Below are positions 2 through 7,100 of a stretch of DNA of 64,000 nucleotides, in pieces; position 1 is the stretch's first letter; every line of letters begins with the position of its first letter. The notes below the pieces were generated by a model, which made no database searches, was not told where the DNA came from, and saw nothing but the letters and a program-made list of their open reading frames with translations. Origin of the DNA: Candidatus Kaiserbacteria bacterium (GTDB taxonomy: Bacteria; Patescibacteriota; Minisyncoccia; Phycocordibacterales; UBA2100); contig CP066682.1 in NCBI GenBank assembly GCA_016432285.1, forward strand, positions 528,428-592,427, in the 5' to 3' direction. A program made the translations under genes and the position numbers.

Positions 2-388
2 ACCAACATCGACTCCGGGGTGCCAAATATCGTGCAGGATGCTGCTGCGCTTGCGCTCGACGACGACGCACACGTGGAGAGCATGCGAGCGCTCTACCGG
101 CAGAAGCGCGACATCCTGCTCCCAGCCCTGCGCGCCTCCGGGCTCGAGCCAGCAAACCCGGCCGCGAGCTTTTACGTATGGCAGAAGGTGCCGGGAAGCG
201 ATGTCGATTTCGCCAAACGCCTGCTTGATCCGGCACTCGGGATCGTCGTAACGCCCGGCAGTCTCATTTCGGAAACCTGCGAGGATGGCACGAATCCAGG
301 AGCCGGATACGTGCGCTTCGCGCTCATGCCGACGATAGAGGAAGTGCATGAAGCAGCCAGACGAATTTCATCGCAAAAATTCTCGTAG
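2..388 (+). CDS. Class I/II aminotransferase, C-terminal fragment (5' truncated by window edge). Likely LL-diaminopimelate aminotransferase given the adjacent lysA.
   Basis: Translation ends ...GAGYVRFALMPTIEEVHEAARRI, typical of a fold-I aminotransferase C-terminus. Reading frame is open to position 2. Followed 8 nt later by lysA. Confidence 0.6.
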   Translation, partial: TNIDSGVPNIVQDAAALALDDDAHVESMRALYRQKRDILLPALRASGLEPANPAASFYVWQKVPGSDVDFAKRLLDPALGIVVTPGSLISETCEDGTNPGAGYVRFALMPTIEEVHEAARRISSQKFS

Positions 389-396
389 CGTGGCTC

Positions 397-1668
397 GTGG
401 GCCAGCCCGTCGCGCAATCGGAGTACGTATCGTACAATGCGCCGATGAAATCCGTACCGTTCACAGCCGCGGAGATTGAATCGCTCATCGCCCAGCATCC
501 GACACCCCTCTATGTCTACGACGAAGCGGGTATTCGCGCGACCGCGCGAAAGTTGATCGAGGCATTCTCGTGGAATGAGGGCTTTAAAGAATACTTTGCG
601 GTGAAGGCGCTTCCCAACCCGCGGGTGCTGGGGATTCTGCGCGAGGAGGGATGCGGTGCCGACTGCTCTTCCCTTCTCGAGCTGCTGCTTGCGGAGCGCG
701 CCGGACTTTCGGGCGAGGAAATTATGTTTACGAGCAACGACACGCCGATTGAGGAGTTCGCCAAGGCGAAGGAGATGGGCGCACTCATCAATCTCGACGC
801 TCTCGAGCATCTCGACTATCTCGAAAAGGGCGTCGGGCTCCCCGATTTTCTCTCCGTGCGCTACAACCCGGGGCCGCTTCGCGAGGGCAACGCGATCATC
901 GGTAAACCGGAGGAAGCGAAGTTCGGCATGACGCGGGAGCAAATCTTCGAAGCCTACCGCCGCGCGAAAGAAAAGGGCGTCCGGAGATTCGGACTCCACA
1001 CCATGGTGGCCTCCAACGAGCGCAATGCCGAGTACTTCGTCGAAACCGCGCGCATGCTCTTCGAGATCGTGCGGGACGTGCGGCGAGAGCTCGGAGTAAC
1101 GATCGAGCTCGTGAATCTCGGCGGCGGCATTGGCATTCCGTACCGACCCGATGACACGGAGGCGAATCTCTCGAAGATTTCGGATGGTATCCGACGCCTC
1201 TTTGATGAATACGAAATGACCGGCGTGCGTCTTGCTATGGAGTGCGGCCGATACATCACGGGTCCGCACGGCTATCTTTTGACGCAGGTGCGCCACCTAA
1301 AGCATACGTACCGTGAGTACGCCGGCGTGGACGCCACGATGGCAAATCTCATGCGTCCCGGCATGTACGGGGCGTACCACCACATCACCGTGCTCGGCAA
1401 GGAAAACGAGGCTGCTTCGAAGGCGTACGACATCGTCGGCTCTCTCTGCGAGAACAACGATAAGTTCGCGATCAACCGGAAGCTACCACAGCTCCAAGAG
1501 GGCGACATCCTCGTCATCCACGATGCGGGTGCGCACGGACACGCAATGGGGTTCAACTACAACGGCAAGCTCCGATCCGCCGAATTTCTGCTGCGACCCG
1601 ATCGCAGCTTCGAAATGATTCGTAGGGCGGAAACCGTCGAGGATTACCTCGCGACCCTGCGTCTTTAG
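397..1668 (+). CDS. lysA: Diaminopimelate decarboxylase
   Basis: Orn/DAP/Arg decarboxylase family 2 motifs (TPLYVYD, FAVKALPN, GGGIGIPY, CENNDKF). GTG start at 397; an alternative ATG is at 445. Confidence 0.9.
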   Translation: MGQPVAQSEYVSYNAPMKSVPFTAAEIESLIAQHPTPLYVYDEAGIRATARKLIEAFSWNEGFKEYFAVKALPNPRVLGILREEGCGADCSSLLELLLAERAGLSGEEIMFTSNDTPIEEFAKAKEMGALINLDALEHLDYLEKGVGLPDFLSVRYNPGPLREGNAIIGKPEEAKFGMTREQIFEAYRRAKEKGVRRFGLHTMVASNERNAEYFVETARMLFEIVRDVRRELGVTIELVNLGGGIGIPYRPDDTEANLSKISDGIRRLFDEYEMTGVRLAMECGRYITGPHGYLLTQVRHLKHTYREYAGVDATMANLMRPGMYGAYHHITVLGKENEAASKAYDIVGSLCENNDKFAINRKLPQLQEGDILVIHDAGAHGHAMGFNYNGKLRSAEFLLRPDRSFEMIRRAETVEDYLATLRL

Positions 1669-1669
1669 T

Positions 1670-3256
1670 CTATTCGATTGGGAACTCGACAAGGAAGCGC
1701 GCGCCCTTTCCATTACCGTCCGATTCTGCCCAGATCCGTCCACGGTGCGCATCGACGATTGATTTCGCGATGAAGAGCCCGTAACCCGTCGAGTGCACAT
1801 TGACCTTGATCGAATCTTTGCCGTGCCCGCCCTCGGTGAAAAGCCGCTTTTTGTCTTCCGCAGTGATGCCGACACCGTTGTCCTGGACCGTCAGGCGCAC
1901 CACCTCACCGCTCGCGCTCACCGCGACCTCGATCGCACCATGGGGCGTATATTTGATCGCGTTGTCGATGAGATTGCGTATGACGTGGCGTCGGATTTTA
2001 TCTTCATCACCCTCCACCTTGGTCTCACGCTCCGTTATTTTCGTTTCAATCGTGAGACTCTTCTCAGCGGCGTTTTTTTGGAGGTCGCCGATCACTTCGA
2101 GAACCGCCTTCTTGAAATCGAAGGGCTGCTTGTTGAACGCCATGGTTCCCTTCTTGAGATTGGATGCATCGAGGATGTCCATGACGGTCGCGACTCCCCG
2201 GCGTACGCTCGCGAGGGCGCTTCCGGCCATCGACTTTAGGGGCGCGGCGACTTCTCCAAAATCGCCTTCGGCGATCGCCGCGAATCCGGCCTGGCTTTCC
2301 GTGAGATAGCCCTTCACTTCATGGCTGATGAAGTGCAGCAGGTTCTCCTGCTGCTGATTGGCAATCTCAAGCGCGTGCCGCGCTTCGATCTCCCGCTCGT
2401 TGCTTCGAAAGAGCAGCAGGCCGAGCGTGAGCACGACCCCAAAGCTCATGAGCGCCAAGAGGAAGCCGAGAATATCCTGTACGAAGAAAAATTGCGTGCC
2501 CGCGAGGATGAGGAACACGTAGAAGAGCGCTTTCACTGCCTCGTCGCCGAGCCGGAAGGTGCCGTAGCTCGTGATCGAGATCGTGAGCATCAGAATAAAG
2601 ATCGGCAGCGTGAAGAGCGCATACAGATTGATTTCGAAGATACCGCTCGCGGTCGCGATGAATTCCGTGCCGGCAAAAATACCGAGAAAGAGCACCACGG
2701 CGAGCACCACGAGCGCAATGCGGATTCGCTCGCTCCATGTACTCGCCGAGAGTGTGCGCCAGGCACCAAGCACGAGAATGGCTGCGAGAATGAGGCCCTC
2801 GAGCCAGACTTTGTAGGCGGAGAGGAACTCATTGTTCTCCATCTCGCACACCGGCTGGTACATTTCGAGCACAGCGCTGCCTCCGATCGTTATCAAAAAG
2901 GGCACGATCGCTGCGCCGAGCAGAAGGTAGCTGTACTCTCTAGGAACACTGGGTAAGAGGTCAACACACACGAACCCGAACAAAAGGAGGAAGAAGGCGA
3001 TCTCAGTGAAATCGAGCGGCGACCAGAAGGCGGCCACGAGGTGATATGAGTCGAGCATCCATACGGCCATGTCCCCGAGAAGCCAGAGGGCAAACGCGGC
3101 AGAGAAGGCGAAGAAGTACGCCGCTTTCAGCTTGTTTTGCGCCCTCCGGAGCGCGAACATGCCGAGGATGAGGGTGGCGATCGCCGGGATGAGGTGCGAA
3201 TAGAGGGCGAGGTCGCGAAATTCGGCAGTCGTTGCAAGGCAGGTGTTGATGTCCAT
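1670..3256 (-). CDS. Sensor histidine kinase with a large multi-TM N-terminal sensor domain
   Basis: At least 8 hydrophobic helices, then an H-box (HFISHEVKGY) and HATPase_c G-boxes (GYGLFIAKSIVDAHRGRIW). Start taken at the internal ATG (MDINTCL...) so that it abuts the upstream gene stop at 3258. Confidence 0.8.
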   Translation of the reverse strand: MDINTCLATTAEFRDLALYSHLIPAIATLILGMFALRRAQNKLKAAYFFAFSAAFALWLLGDMAVWMLDSYHLVAAFWSPLDFTEIAFFLLLFGFVCVDLLPSVPREYSYLLLGAAIVPFLITIGGSAVLEMYQPVCEMENNEFLSAYKVWLEGLILAAILVLGAWRTLSASTWSERIRIALVVLAVVLFLGIFAGTEFIATASGIFEINLYALFTLPIFILMLTISITSYGTFRLGDEAVKALFYVFLILAGTQFFFVQDILGFLLALMSFGVVLTLGLLLFRSNEREIEARHALEIANQQQENLLHFISHEVKGYLTESQAGFAAIAEGDFGEVAAPLKSMAGSALASVRRGVATVMDILDASNLKKGTMAFNKQPFDFKKAVLEVIGDLQKNAAEKSLTIETKITERETKVEGDEDKIRRHVIRNLIDNAIKYTPHGAIEVAVSASGEVVRLTVQDNGVGITAEDKKRLFTEGGHGKDSIKVNVHSTGYGLFIAKSIVDAHRGRIWAESDGNGKGARFLVEFPIE

Positions 3257-3257
3257 A

Positions 3258-4055
3258 TCAGAGGTAGCGTTCGATCTTTTTTGGATAGGAATCCCAGAAG
3301 GCGCGCGTCTCCTCACCTTTCGGGACGAGCTCCACCACAAGCGGTGGATAGCCGAAGCGCGCCTCGATATTTCTGAAGGCAGGGAGCATGATCGCCTTCA
3401 CGAATACGCGCTCGGCCTCGGTGGGCTCGAAGTGCTCGAAGAGAATCGCGTCGCGAACAAAAAAGGCAAGCAGCTCCTCGTAATAGAGATGCGCGAGATC
3501 TCCATGGCGGGTAAACCACGGAGTGGCGTCGTAGCAGAGCTTCTCCACCTTCATTTTGGTAACACTCGCGAGAAGTCGGTGGTGGAACTCGACGAATTTC
3601 TCGCCGTTCTTGCACCGCACGTCGGAAAAGGATTTCCCGGTGTACGCATTGAAATCCACGACTGTGCGATATTTGACCATGTCCCTGCCGTCGGAGCCGG
3701 TGAATTGGTACACCGGAAGTTTTCCGAGCGAGCGTTTGTACGGATTGCCCGTTGAGACAAACTTGTCTCCGTGGTACTCCAGGACGAGCGGCGTCAGCGG
3801 CAGATCCTTGACGGTGCGCAAAAAACGAAGCAGCTCATGTTGCGGCGTTGCCACCTGTCTGAAAAAGATAGCAAAGGGCTCTTGCCGTTTCAGTGGGATC
3901 ACGGGGTCCTTCATGTATTTGCCCACCTGCGTCTTGAGGTGTGGGCTGCGGCGCCTGCGGCGCAGCTCCTCAAGTGCATCCCTTGATGGTACAGAGGGAA
4001 ATTCGGCTGTCATCGGTACTTCAAGAAGCTGCGCTGGAGGAAGAATCTCGCTCAT
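3258..4055 (-). CDS. Hypothetical protein (266 aa), no recognised domain
   Basis: Long ORF tightly packed (about 2 nt gaps) between the Cys-rich protein gene and the histidine kinase. Start at MSEILPP chosen to avoid overlap. Confidence 0.5.
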   Translation of the reverse strand: MSEILPPAQLLEVPMTAEFPSVPSRDALEELRRRRRSPHLKTQVGKYMKDPVIPLKRQEPFAIFFRQVATPQHELLRFLRTVKDLPLTPLVLEYHGDKFVSTGNPYKRSLGKLPVYQFTGSDGRDMVKYRTVVDFNAYTGKSFSDVRCKNGEKFVEFHHRLLASVTKMKVEKLCYDATPWFTRHGDLAHLYYEELLAFFVRDAILFEHFEPTEAERVFVKAIMLPAFRNIEARFGYPPLVVELVPKGEETRAFWDSYPKKIERYL

Positions 4056-4057
4056 AA

Positions 4058-4390
4058 TTATTCCATGCACGCGATTTCTTCTTGATCGGAGCATTTCAAC
4101 TCCTCGCAGTCAGTGCCCGGACAAACATTCGCACAGGAATTGTCTTCGCAGGTATCGAACGCGCGCGCGGGGACCGCAAAAAGCCGGTACGTCTCGAGCT
4201 CATTGGGAGGGCACTCTTCCTCGTCGCAGTCGCGCGTGTAGCAGTCACTCGACGACTGGCATGGAGCCTCAACGAGGAAACTGTACTCTTCGCGCAGCAC
4301 ATATCGGTCGAAGCTGAACGCGAGCGCAATTACAACGGCTCCCAGGAGCAACCATTGCGGTGCAGTTATTGTTCGGAGCGCGGGAATCAT
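4058..4390 (-). CDS. Small exported Cys-rich acidic protein (about 110 aa) with an N-terminal signal/anchor
   Basis: N-terminal R + hydrophobic stretch (MIPALRTITAPQWLLLGAVVIALAF), then 10-11 Cys in C-x4-5-C spacing embedded in D/E-rich sequence. Confidence 0.5.
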   Translation of the reverse strand: MIPALRTITAPQWLLLGAVVIALAFSFDRYVLREEYSFLVEAPCQSSSDCYTRDCDEEECPPNELETYRLFAVPARAFDTCEDNSCANVCPGTDCEELKCSDQEEIACME

Positions 4391-4395
4391 AGGTG

Positions 4396-5052
4396 TTAGG
4401 TCTGCGTCGCAAAGAGCTGCCAGAGATAGAGGACGATCTGCACGATGACGGTCCAGCGAAGCGTCCAGTACCCGTTGGAGAGGACGACGCTCGACCAAAA
4501 GATTGCCCAGTCCCTGCCACGAAGCCCTTTGTAACGGTCATCCTTATGCCGGAAATACACTGCCGTCATGAAAGGATCTGTGTGGATCGAGAGCACTAAA
4601 AAAGCTGGCATGCCGCCAAGTCGCGTAAGCCGGTGGAGAAAGCGCCCGAAGCGGTGCTCATGCTCTTCTTCGTCGCGCCATTCCTTGAGGAGCTCAAAGC
4701 CGAACCAGTCAACCTTGGCCCAATCGTAGAGCCGCAGGTACACAAGGCAGATGAGTGCCGAAATCGGCATCATGATGAGGAAGGCGGCAAGGGAGCCGTA
4801 CCAGGGACCCCAGAGATTCGTGGCCGTGGCAACGACGACGCCGTACAAGAGCCAGTCGAAGAGAAACTCCTCGATTTTTTTTCCGGTGTGGCCGACGGCC
4901 AGAGTGCCAATGCGCTCTTTGTGCCGTGAAAACCAGGCGAACACGCCGCTTCGGAGCGGAGTTGACTCCATGGAGAAACTGTAGTCGGCAAACGACCGCA
5001 TTACAAGGCGGGGCTGTGCAGAAAAATGAAGGAAAAGTGCAACGCTGTGCAC
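4396..5052 (-). CDS. Hypothetical integral membrane protein (about 4 TM helices)
   Basis: Hydrophobic helices. First gene of the co-directional cluster 5052->1670. Start is uncertain: GTG at 5052, or ATG at 5001 or 4971. Confidence 0.45.
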   Translation of the reverse strand: MHSVALFLHFSAQPRLVMRSFADYSFSMESTPLRSGVFAWFSRHKERIGTLAVGHTGKKIEEFLFDWLLYGVVVATATNLWGPWYGSLAAFLIMMPISALICLVYLRLYDWAKVDWFGFELLKEWRDEEEHEHRFGRFLHRLTRLGGMPAFLVLSIHTDPFMTAVYFRHKDDRYKGLRGRDWAIFWSSVVLSNGYWTLRWTVIVQIVLYLWQLFATQT

Positions 5053-5167
5053 AGAGCACCCCTCAGCCTGCCTAATTTCAGCTACACTGAAAGCGGGTCC
5101 CGATTGACATACCGACGCTCATTAGTACGCTGTCACTATCGCGAATTATTTGCATTAAACAACTATC

Positions 5168-6589
5168 ATGTTTTCGATCCGCGCGTGCCATTTTGCCATC
5201 CTCGTATCACTCCTTGCCATTCTCGCTGTGCCCGCATTGACTCGCGCAGAGTCCGTTTGCCCATACTTGTGGAGTCGAGATCTTCGCCTCACGAGCGTCG
5301 GTGAGGACGTCCTGAAGCTTCAGCAGTTCCTCAACGCGTCAGAGGAGACGCTCATCGCATCTGCGGGAGTCGGCTCCCCCGGACAGGAATCCACTATCTT
5401 CGGCGCCAAAACGAAAGCTGCGGTCGCGAAGTTCCAGGAAAAATACTTCAACGAGATCCTCGCACCGAACGGGCTCACGAAGGGCACGGGCACCGTGGGG
5501 CCATCCACGCGCGCAACCCTCAACACGCTCTGCATCCTCTCCCCCGCTTCTGCATCCAGCGCAGATGGAACGGAGGCAAGCGTCAATGATGCCCTCACTG
5601 TAAGCGATCCGGGGCAGCCCGACACGTCTTTGGCACCCTCGAGCGCCGGGGTTCTCTTTCACACATTCACGCTCGCCGCGGGCAGTAAGGACGTGCTGGT
5701 GTCAGAAGTGGTGCTTGAGCGCACGGGCTTCGGCTCGGACGGTGCCTTCGCAAACTTCGGCTTGTGGGACGAGGACGGTCTTCAGGTGGGACCGGTCGCC
5801 GCTCTCAACTCGCAGCATCGGTTGGTCTTTCGCAGATCGTTCACGATTCCGGCCGGGCAGGAGCGCACCTTCGAGGTGTACGCCAACATGAACGTCGACC
5901 TTTCGTCGTACGAAGGGCAAATGCCGGTGATCCAGCTCCTCTCGCTCAGCGCCTCTTCGCCCGTCGAGGGGCAGCTGCCGCTTCGAGGTACACCACAGAC
6001 CGTCAACAACACGCTCACCGTGGGCGGAGCTGATGCGACGCTCTCCGAGTACGATCCGCATGGTGCCACGACACGCTACATCGACGACACCAACGTACGC
6101 TTTGCAGGCATTCGCATCGCGGCGCACTCGCAGGAAAGCCTCACCTTTACGAGCATCATCTGGACGCAGGCGGGCACCGCGGGCGCGGGAGATATCGCCA
6201 ACGTCAAAACGGTTGTGAACGGAGTCGAGTACCCTGCCATTCGGAGTCCCTATTCGGAAAAAGAATACGTTACGCTTTTTGATCCCGGCATCGTTATCGA
6301 AAAAGGTCTTTCCATCGATGTGTACGTGAAGGGCGATCCGCTTCCGGGTGCGGCCAATCGCACCATCAAGTTCGACATTCGCGACATCAACGACGAGGTG
6401 GGACTCGACGGCAACCTCTACGGCTTCGGCGTCGGACTCTCGCCTGTCGGCAACACGGACGTCGCCGGAGCGGAATCGGCGTTTATCACGAGCGACGGGA
6501 CCACCGATGGCGACACAGGGAGCCCGTTCTTCTCGGGCTCCACGATCACGATACGGGGTGCGACGGCAACTGGCGTCGGCAAGATGTAG
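5168..6589 (+). CDS. Secreted protein with an N-terminal peptidoglycan-binding (PG_binding_1) domain
   Basis: Signal peptide (MFSIRACHFAILVSLLAILAVPALTRA), then a PG_binding_1-like segment (GEDVLKLQQFLN...IFGAKTKAAVAKFQEKY). Confidence 0.7.
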   Translation: MFSIRACHFAILVSLLAILAVPALTRAESVCPYLWSRDLRLTSVGEDVLKLQQFLNASEETLIASAGVGSPGQESTIFGAKTKAAVAKFQEKYFNEILAPNGLTKGTGTVGPSTRATLNTLCILSPASASSADGTEASVNDALTVSDPGQPDTSLAPSSAGVLFHTFTLAAGSKDVLVSEVVLERTGFGSDGAFANFGLWDEDGLQVGPVAALNSQHRLVFRRSFTIPAGQERTFEVYANMNVDLSSYEGQMPVIQLLSLSASSPVEGQLPLRGTPQTVNNTLTVGGADATLSEYDPHGATTRYIDDTNVRFAGIRIAAHSQESLTFTSIIWTQAGTAGAGDIANVKTVVNGVEYPAIRSPYSEKEYVTLFDPGIVIEKGLSIDVYVKGDPLPGAANRTIKFDIRDINDEVGLDGNLYGFGVGLSPVGNTDVAGAESAFITSDGTTDGDTGSPFFSGSTITIRGATATGVGKM

Positions 6590-6590
6590 C

Positions 6591-7100
6591 TCAGCTTCTT
6601 ACAAAAGCGAGTGCGGCGTAGGAGCACAGAAGCCACCAGAAGGCGTAGAGGTCGCCAAAGATCGCCTCGACGCTCGGTCCGAACTGCCACACGGCGGAGA
6701 GGCTTGGTGTTGAAATCCAAATCACCGCAAGAATCGCTGCCGCGGCAACTCCTGTGATCGCAGCCTGGAGGGGCTTCCCCGCGCCTCCGCCCCAGGAAAG
6801 TCCGATTCTGGAGATAAAAATATACAAAGCGACCACTAGCACGGCGAACAGTATCGTCTGCATAACGGGGGTGTTGAATTGCTCAGTGATTCCGCCGACG
6901 AACATGGCGTTGCCGATCGTCCCGCGCAGGAGCACAGCCGCAGGGAGTGCGAGCGCGAGCGTGCTCACACGCTCCGAGCCGCTCCGCACTGTTATGAAGG
7001 CCGCAAAGAGCGCGAAGCCGCCAATGATGATCCAGTCGGTCGGAATGTTTGTGAAGAACGCGAGCAAGTCCTCAAGATTCATTCCCAAAGTATAGCCCAC
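6591..7100 (-). CDS. Hypothetical membrane protein
   Basis: 169-aa ORF with about 5 hydrophobic helices, convergent with the PG-binding gene. Confidence 0.45.
   Translation of the reverse strand: MGYTLGMNLEDLLAFFTNIPTDWIIIGGFALFAAFITVRSGSERVSTLALALPAAVLLRGTIGNAMFVGGITEQFNTPVMQTILFAVLVVALYIFISRIGLSWGGGAGKPLQAAITGVAAAAILAVIWISTPSLSAVWQFGPSVEAIFGDLYAFWWLLCSYAALAFVRS

Follow-up and report, generated by a model that had tools for sequence, protein, structure and literature searches.

Four consecutive genes on the minus strand of a 64,000-nucleotide stretch of Candidatus Kaiserbacteria DNA (contig CP066682.1; hereafter the window) form one conserved functional unit, which we found in about a hundred loci of uncultured Patescibacteria. 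The genes, named A to D in the order in which they would be transcribed, encode a small membrane protein, a Cys-rich acidic protein with a putative membrane anchor, a protein with a predicted Rossmann-like fold, and a histidine kinase with many transmembrane (TM) helices. A, B, C and the nine-TM sensor domain of D are undescribed families, whereas accessory-protein-dependent kinases themselves are already a known kind. The operon is not described in the literature that we found, including the Lipocone and PSP comparative-genomics papers.

A four-gene unit conserved across Patescibacteria

Gene A (4396-4971, minus strand, as for all module features below) starts with ATG and encodes a protein of 191 residues with four TM helices, in agreement with the deposited protein P0226. 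It is followed by B (4058-4390), which encodes a signal-anchored, acidic protein of 110 residues with ten cysteines, by C (3258-4055), whose 265-residue product is predicted to be cytoplasmic, and by D (1670-3256), which encodes a 528-residue histidine kinase with about nine TM helices. All four genes are co-directional, and their intergenic gaps are of 5, 2 and 1 nucleotides according to the listing of open reading frames (ORFs) and the reading of the minus strand. An earlier note, made from the letters of the window, had already described four tightly packed minus-strand genes beginning with a 4-TM membrane protein, and this description stands; its gaps of 2-6 nucleotides and its length of 266 residues for C need correction, while its statement that C has no family match is right. 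It had also placed the three non-kinase proteins outside the families that it could recognize. Indeed, A, B and C have no match at all in Pfam or NCBIfam, and scans of 87 C, 41 A and 23 B family members against both databases returned nothing usable.

The earlier note had proposed the conservation of the gene order in related genomes as a check, and the module is found to co-occur in dozens of independent loci, sometimes reordered. All 74 close homologues of C are unannotated, and essentially every locus around them that is long enough contains all four genes, down to ∼31% identity in C. In the first set of loci (numbered from L001), the four genes co-occur from L001 to L024, with the order A-C-B-D in a distant clade (L021, L023 and L024), and with A inverted and a SET gene inserted in L022. 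Scanning metagenomes with another clade of C as the starting point delivered 80 further loci with the same families, all four being present together in many of them. After removal of duplicates, 100 non-redundant loci with C were retained, of which 38 have flanks of at least 2.5 kb upstream and at least 3.5 kb downstream and were used to count gene presence: D is found in 32 of these, A in 31 and B in 27. The gap between C and D has a median of 8 nucleotides and widens to 400-800 nucleotides in 11 loci, which is explained by a SET gene where one sits between C and D. Beyond the closest relatives, which share dnaK-dnaJ and two further genes (E and F, see below), the flanking genes vary, and some loci have additional ORFs between the genes of the module, which are of no common type (DUF4143 ATPase, prolyl oligopeptidase, PALP, PHP and NUDIX). 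This retention of gene content through rearrangement, while the flanks change, is what usually marks a functional unit, here A-B-C-D. The same synteny refutes the absence of any functional link, in which the four genes would be neighbours of a compact genome sharing a transcript, or the Cys-rich ORF would be spurious. The density of Candidate Phyla Radiation (CPR) genomes, illustrated here by the convergent stop codons of lysA and D only 1 nucleotide apart, speaks for such an explanation. However, chance proximity would hardly keep four families together through rearrangements, down to ∼30% identity, in dozens of loci with changing flanks, and we give it next to no credit.

A putatively membrane-anchored Cys-rich protein and a nine-helix kinase

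The Cys-rich ORF suspected of being possibly spurious is a genuine conserved gene. A word-index search with B alone returned B itself only; homologues were collected from ORFs adjoining C, and they are present at that place in 48 of the 100 non-redundant loci. The ten cysteines of B (positions 44, 50, 55, 60, 81, 86, 90, 95, 100 and 108, with spacings of x5, x4, x4, x20, x4, x3, x4, x4 and x7) correspond to ten columns that are conserved in 48 unique homologues. The sole recurrent departure, seen in at least six homologues, is that the third and fourth cysteines (C3 and C4) are missing together. This points to a disulfide between these two and to a structural role of the disulfides as a whole. 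The ectodomain probably contains five of them. This ectodomain (C44-E110, 4061-4261) has a net charge of ∼-14 (about -14/-15 for the tail, counted as 67-70 residues) and is net negative in all homologues, with a median of -9 and values down to -55 in versions with a long acidic tail. Among curated Cys-rich families, a comparison of 23 B members with Pfam gave nothing meaningful, and NCBIfam gave nothing.

The N-terminal part of B is equally well kept. The signal or anchor first noticed ahead of the Cys-rich acidic tail is a hydrophobic segment at W13-F27 (4310-4354), which is predicted from hydropathy to be a signal anchor and corresponds to an uncharged run in the homologues. Every one of them starts with a short basic stretch followed by this run (median of 19 residues, range 15-26), and a fixed and conserved juxtamembrane spacer of 15 residues separates it from the first cysteine in the 48 homologues. 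Owing to the uncharged run and the fixed spacer, the N-terminus seems more consistent with a signal anchor than with a signal peptide that is cleaved off, and B looks like a membrane-anchored disulfide domain rather than a diffusible ligand. The initial suggestion of a Cys-rich ligand encoded beside its sensor is thus not upheld, since B keeps both anchor and spacer and occurs with A and C in two loci devoid of kinase (L061 and L062).

The same features bear on a more specific model, in which B would be processed and released as a Cys-rich peptide sensed by D in an agr-like autocrine loop, with A acting in processing or export. The gene order loosely recalls agrB-agrD-agrC, in that one operon holds a polytopic and an exported protein, both small, together with a multi-TM kinase, and gene callers often overlook B, just as they do small peptide genes. 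Yet B is a folded and anchored domain of ∼70 residues rather than a short propeptide, its TM-length anchor and juxtamembrane spacer are conserved, B is found without a kinase, as just mentioned, and D without B in many loci. In addition, no match to the AgrB family or to a LytTR regulator was obtained, and C has no counterpart in agr. Taken together, these differences make a peptide loop very improbable. Regarding the annotation of B, the gene is apparently absent from the deposited genome, in which C and A have consecutive locus tags (HYS26_03095 and HYS26_03100), and a gene caller also skipped it in L001 (5529-6001). As B seems to be unannotated here and was missed in one relative or more, databases underestimate how often the module occurs.

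D belongs to the two-component histidine kinases. It matches HATPase_c of Pfam (E-value of 1.7e-24), and many NCBIfam kinase models match residues 320-555 of the 556-residue longest ORF that holds D. The predicted phospho-accepting histidine, H312 (codon at 2321-2323, motif FISHEVKG), is conserved in 23 of 24 sequences, and H312, N428, N432, D459, G461, G463, F473, G491 and G493 in 23-24 of the 24, so that the H-box histidine and the N, G1, F and G2 boxes that define such kinases are all present. Most likely, D is catalytically active. The HisKA model of Pfam matches homologues in L004, L032 and L034 but not the D protein of the window. Upstream of this core, the sensor region (residues 1-283, 2408-3256; delimited by hydropathy and by conservation over 52 homologues) displays nine hydrophobic segments, in line with the at least eight TM helices announced before, connected by loops of ∼20 residues or fewer. 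The last TM helix continues directly into the DHp helix, and no sensor domain was detected in D by Pfam scan or hydropathy. In 56 of 58 full-length matches, the hidden Markov model (HMM) of the D family extends over the membrane part at the N-terminus, which indicates that sensor bundle and kinase core have evolved together as a single orthologous family. Since the input region is just a nine-helix bundle running into the DHp helix, the signal probably reaches D by way of partners or within the membrane.

In this respect, D resembles the kinases of BceS-BceAB, LiaS-LiaF, GraS-GraX-VraFG and WalK-YycHI, which likewise have no sensor domain of their own, co-transcribed membrane or ectodomain partners and a canonical HisKA-type core. 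However, D has nine TM helices instead of two, its partners belong to undescribed families, the unit contains the extra cytoplasmic Rossmann-like protein C, and the regulators near D are receiver-only proteins that are absent from the window. With respect to the two TM helices and the extracellular linker of less than about 25 residues that characterize BceS and LiaS, D shares the short loops only.

Within the membrane region of the 52 homologues, conservation is highest at C6 and C137 (98% each) and in an aromatic set that includes W58, W66 and W78, with D62 (83%) between the first two. Both cysteines are predicted to face outward in a nine-TM topology with the N-terminus outside, which places basic residues on the predicted inner loops. 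They are candidates for a disulfide that may join the N-terminal tail to the TM4-TM5 loop. These two positions, together with the ten conserved cysteines of the acidic domain of B, would suit an extracytoplasmic redox or metal sensor, in which the thiol/disulfide state or metal loading of B and of the outer cysteines of D sets kinase activity. The even number of cysteines in B and the joint loss of C3 and C4 fit structural disulfides instead, and conserved CxxC, His or Met metal motifs are lacking. As such a sensor would also leave C, the kinase-free A-C loci and the polyamine, SET and GNAT neighbours (see below) unexplained, we regard it as improbable.

The earlier note had called D an orphan kinase and reported no response regulator in the 64 kb. 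The latter is right: a phmmer search of the window with five receiver sequences gave nothing, and a receiver HMM run on its six-frame translation reached a best E-value of 0.45. No receiver gene was found in L001-L025 either. The kinase is thus an orphan in the window and in these Kaiserbacteria-type loci only, and the label does not extend to the whole family. Indeed, receiver-only genes immediately follow D in L036 (10251-11017), L080, L087 (2735-3133) and L092, receiver genes come after a second kinase gene in L114 (5042-6841), and REC-REC proteins are encoded a few kb downstream in L053 (11799-12623), L056 and L073. All these D-linked regulators are receiver-only, being made of one REC or of REC-REC, and lack a DNA-binding output domain. 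In L053 (10489-11769) and L056 (4236-5549), the kinase and REC-REC genes are separated by a gene for UDP-glucose dehydrogenase.

The A-C core and its recurrent neighbours

The A-C pair is the older core of the unit and is independent of the kinase. In a metagenome-assembled genome of Gammaproteobacteria (L030), a homologue of A (33% identity, E-value of 2e-20) directly precedes C, and neither B nor D is present. Other kinase-free A-C loci are L031, L069, L083, L085, L091 and L113, and the arrangements seen without kinase comprise AdoMetDC-C-A, AdoMetDC-SpeE-C-C-A, C-SET-A and C-u185-GNAT, u185 being an unannotated family of 185 residues. The u185 and GNAT genes stand next to C in L077, L082, L090 (984-1541), L095 and L102, in an arrangement that has no A, no B and no kinase of its own, the only kinase-like match in L077 and L082 being a distant 966-residue protein encoded on the opposite strand. 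Two C paralogues per locus are found in L015, L076/L078, L102 and L113 (adjacent in the last two), and A is duplicated in L020, L053 and L057, so that the core has undergone repeated duplication.

C belongs to a large family. A profile search of 1.84 billion cluster representatives retrieved 928 members at an E-value ≤1e-3 and 499 at ≤1e-30; clustered at 50% identity, the family thus has no fewer than 928 clusters, and it is not confined to Patescibacteria. None of the 87 scanned members holds a Pfam domain. No relative of C was found in the PDB by sequence or profile, and Foldseek returned no PDB match at E ≤1e-3. The predicted structure of C suggests a remote HUP / class-I-aaRS-like fold of Rossmann-like type, whose nearest known folds would be class I LysRS (1irx) and BshC (4wbd). 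Polar positions that are conserved across 159 diverse members are R34, R66, E74, E93, D97, N104, K107, H158, D176, Y192, E207 and E215, and the conserved aromatics beyond Y192 are W180, W254 and Y257. In the predicted model, R66, E93, D176 and E207 are the last residues of beta strands and E74 opens the first helix, and it is at such strand ends that these folds usually have their ligand crevice, which is acidic and aromatic here. The most conserved loop follows beta-1, at the HIGH position, and reads (F/L)xR(Q/H)(V/I)A(T/S)PNxE, its histidine not being conserved. Compared with the HUP class (class I LysRS, BshC, nucleotidyltransferases and cyclodipeptide synthases), C shows neither sequence similarity nor a Foldseek match, and its conserved residues are mostly acidic and aromatic. 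As for the nucleotide-binding motifs HIGH and KMSKS (or HxGH / ISSTxxR), the histidine of the first varies, as just stated, and a KMSKS-like motif was not noticed among the conserved positions inspected, where no dedicated motif search was run; a Gly-rich nucleotide loop is absent. The most distant homologue of C (P0074, L026 949-4171) stands alone between genes for Peptidase_M20 and Peptidase_M28.

A is without known relatives. Its conserved residues are Y43, Y82, D88, D132-P133 and R153-D154-W155, and four Asp are conserved or nearly so. Where A is missing, its position is taken by an EamA transporter in L019, L032 and L105, and likewise in L017, L097 and L108. This occupation of the slot of A suggests a transport-type role for A. 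An assignment of A to DedA/VTT was considered and rejected, with sub-threshold VTT matches in 5 of 41 members and a probability of 4.9% in hhalign against five E. coli DedA proteins.

Several enzymes recur around this core. SET genes or fusions adjoin C in 27 of the 100 non-redundant loci, and in some fusion proteins C is itself followed by a SET domain or preceded by a GNAT. In L022 (5744-6355, minus strand), the SET gene that adjoins C has intact NHSCxPN and post-SET Cys motifs, from which we infer that the SET domains beside C are probably active methyltransferases. Besides, AdoMet_dc adjoins the module in 11 fetched loci (9 non-redundant), usually immediately upstream and on the same strand, the spermidine synthase SpeE adjoins it in 5 fetched loci, and an HSS-like gene is located upstream in L004/L005 and L018. 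LD-carboxypeptidase is also among the neighbours (AdoMet_dc, SpeE, EamA and LD-carboxypeptidase being assigned by Pfam/NCBIfam). In CPR, including a Kaiserbacteria genome assembled from a metagenome, AdoMetDC homologues have been reported as neofunctionalised polyamine decarboxylases that are often clustered with hss or speE (PMC10407285). Such cluster genes (SpeD/SpeDC, SpeE, HSS) adjoin the module in several lineages, whereas none of the module proteins falls into a described family of polyamine enzymes, and the seeds used found no polyamine gene in the window. The decarboxylase encoded beside D in the window was examined as a polyamine enzyme and rejected, as it is LysA, of lysine biosynthesis.

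A possible role in the handling or sensing of cationic amines

What is firmly established is a conserved sensory unit that couples a multi-TM kinase devoid of an input domain to three accessory proteins, A-C being a separate and older pair within it. The acidic or aromatic conserved features of all four proteins, together with the polyamine, amine-modifying and transporter neighbours, lead us to a tentative proposal on its mechanism that we give rather less than an even chance: A-B-C-D would be a sensor that depends on its accessory proteins, and its core would handle or sense a cationic amine, either a polyamine or a compound derived from one. In this mechanism, A would move the amine across the membrane, and C would bind or convert it by means of the acidic and aromatic positions conserved where its strands reach their C-terminal ends. 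B would present an acidic surface outside the cell. D would signal how this machinery stands by transferring phosphate to a receiver-only protein, which would be encoded beside D in some relatives and, in the Kaiserbacteria genome, elsewhere or not at all. The physical complex, its substrate and the direction of signalling are here conjectural.

A number of points weigh against this proposal. With the seeds used, no polyamine gene was found in the 64-kb window, and the neighbouring decarboxylase is the LysA mentioned above. AdoMetDC or SpeE is present in only ∼10% of the non-redundant loci, a proportion for which there is no background frequency to compare with. A has no detectable transporter homology, neither its sequence nor its fold placing it with SMR or EamA, and the nearest folds of C are ATP-dependent ligases. 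The SET, GNAT, peptidase and UDP-glucose dehydrogenase neighbours fit envelope modification equally well.

The main rival draws on several of these points. It supposes an envelope charge-modification machinery with its own sensor, following the logic of Dlt or MprF combined with GraS/ApsS, in which C would be a cytoplasmic ligase or transferase for an amino compound, A a membrane component, B an anchored helper and D an adjuster responding to stress at the surface. The closest folds of C, those of BshC (a putative cysteine ligase) and of class I LysRS, would suit such an enzyme, as would amine- or wall-related neighbours (GNAT, SET, LD-carboxypeptidase, Peptidase_M20/M28, the PG_binding_1 protein F and UDP-glucose dehydrogenase). 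Moreover, the module recalls the DltA/DltB/DltD system, in which an enzyme of the cytoplasm is likewise combined with a polytopic protein and an ectodomain on an anchor. However, the non-conserved histidine at the HIGH position of C, the missing nucleotide loop and the fact that no KMSKS-like motif was noticed do not favour a ligase of this class; no recurrent carrier protein or lipid-linked enzyme is found in the neighbourhoods, and the wall-related neighbours are few and change between loci. For these reasons, we consider envelope modification unlikely.

Coming back to cationic amines, a bolder form of the proposal would be a widespread and hitherto undescribed system by which Patescibacteria sense and handle polycations (polyamines), made of three new families, with C as a new HUP-derived enzyme that binds or converts polyamines, A as a new small transporter, and B and D as an extracellular polyamine receptor. 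We find this version doubtful. If true, an episymbiont might read polyamines derived from its host and signal through receiver-only proteins. Patescibacteria have tiny genomes and few signalling systems, and a kinase module that is kept across many lineages is probably central to the reading of their surroundings or host. Naming three unannotated families and a polyamine link thereby offers concrete targets for experiments.

Regarding the context of the module in the window, the stretch that separates A from gene F, which diverges from it (4972-5167), is, by its position alone, the presumed promoter region of the operon. A consensus scan found no sigma-70-like site in it, overall matches being no commoner than in shuffled sequence, and promoter, terminator and Rfam scans of the module region gave nothing informative. 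At the other end, lysA (397-1668, plus strand; TIGR01048, 301.7 bits), which is preceded by a fragment of a diaminopimelate aminotransferase gene (20-388, plus strand), converges on D, and the single nucleotide between their stop codons leaves no space for a terminator. Gene F (5168-6589, plus strand) encodes a secreted protein of 473 residues with a PG_binding_1 domain, and gene E (6591-7100, minus strand) a multi-TM protein of 169 residues that matches no family. Synteny of these two genes with the module is limited to the closest relatives, where they lie between dnaJ and gene A.

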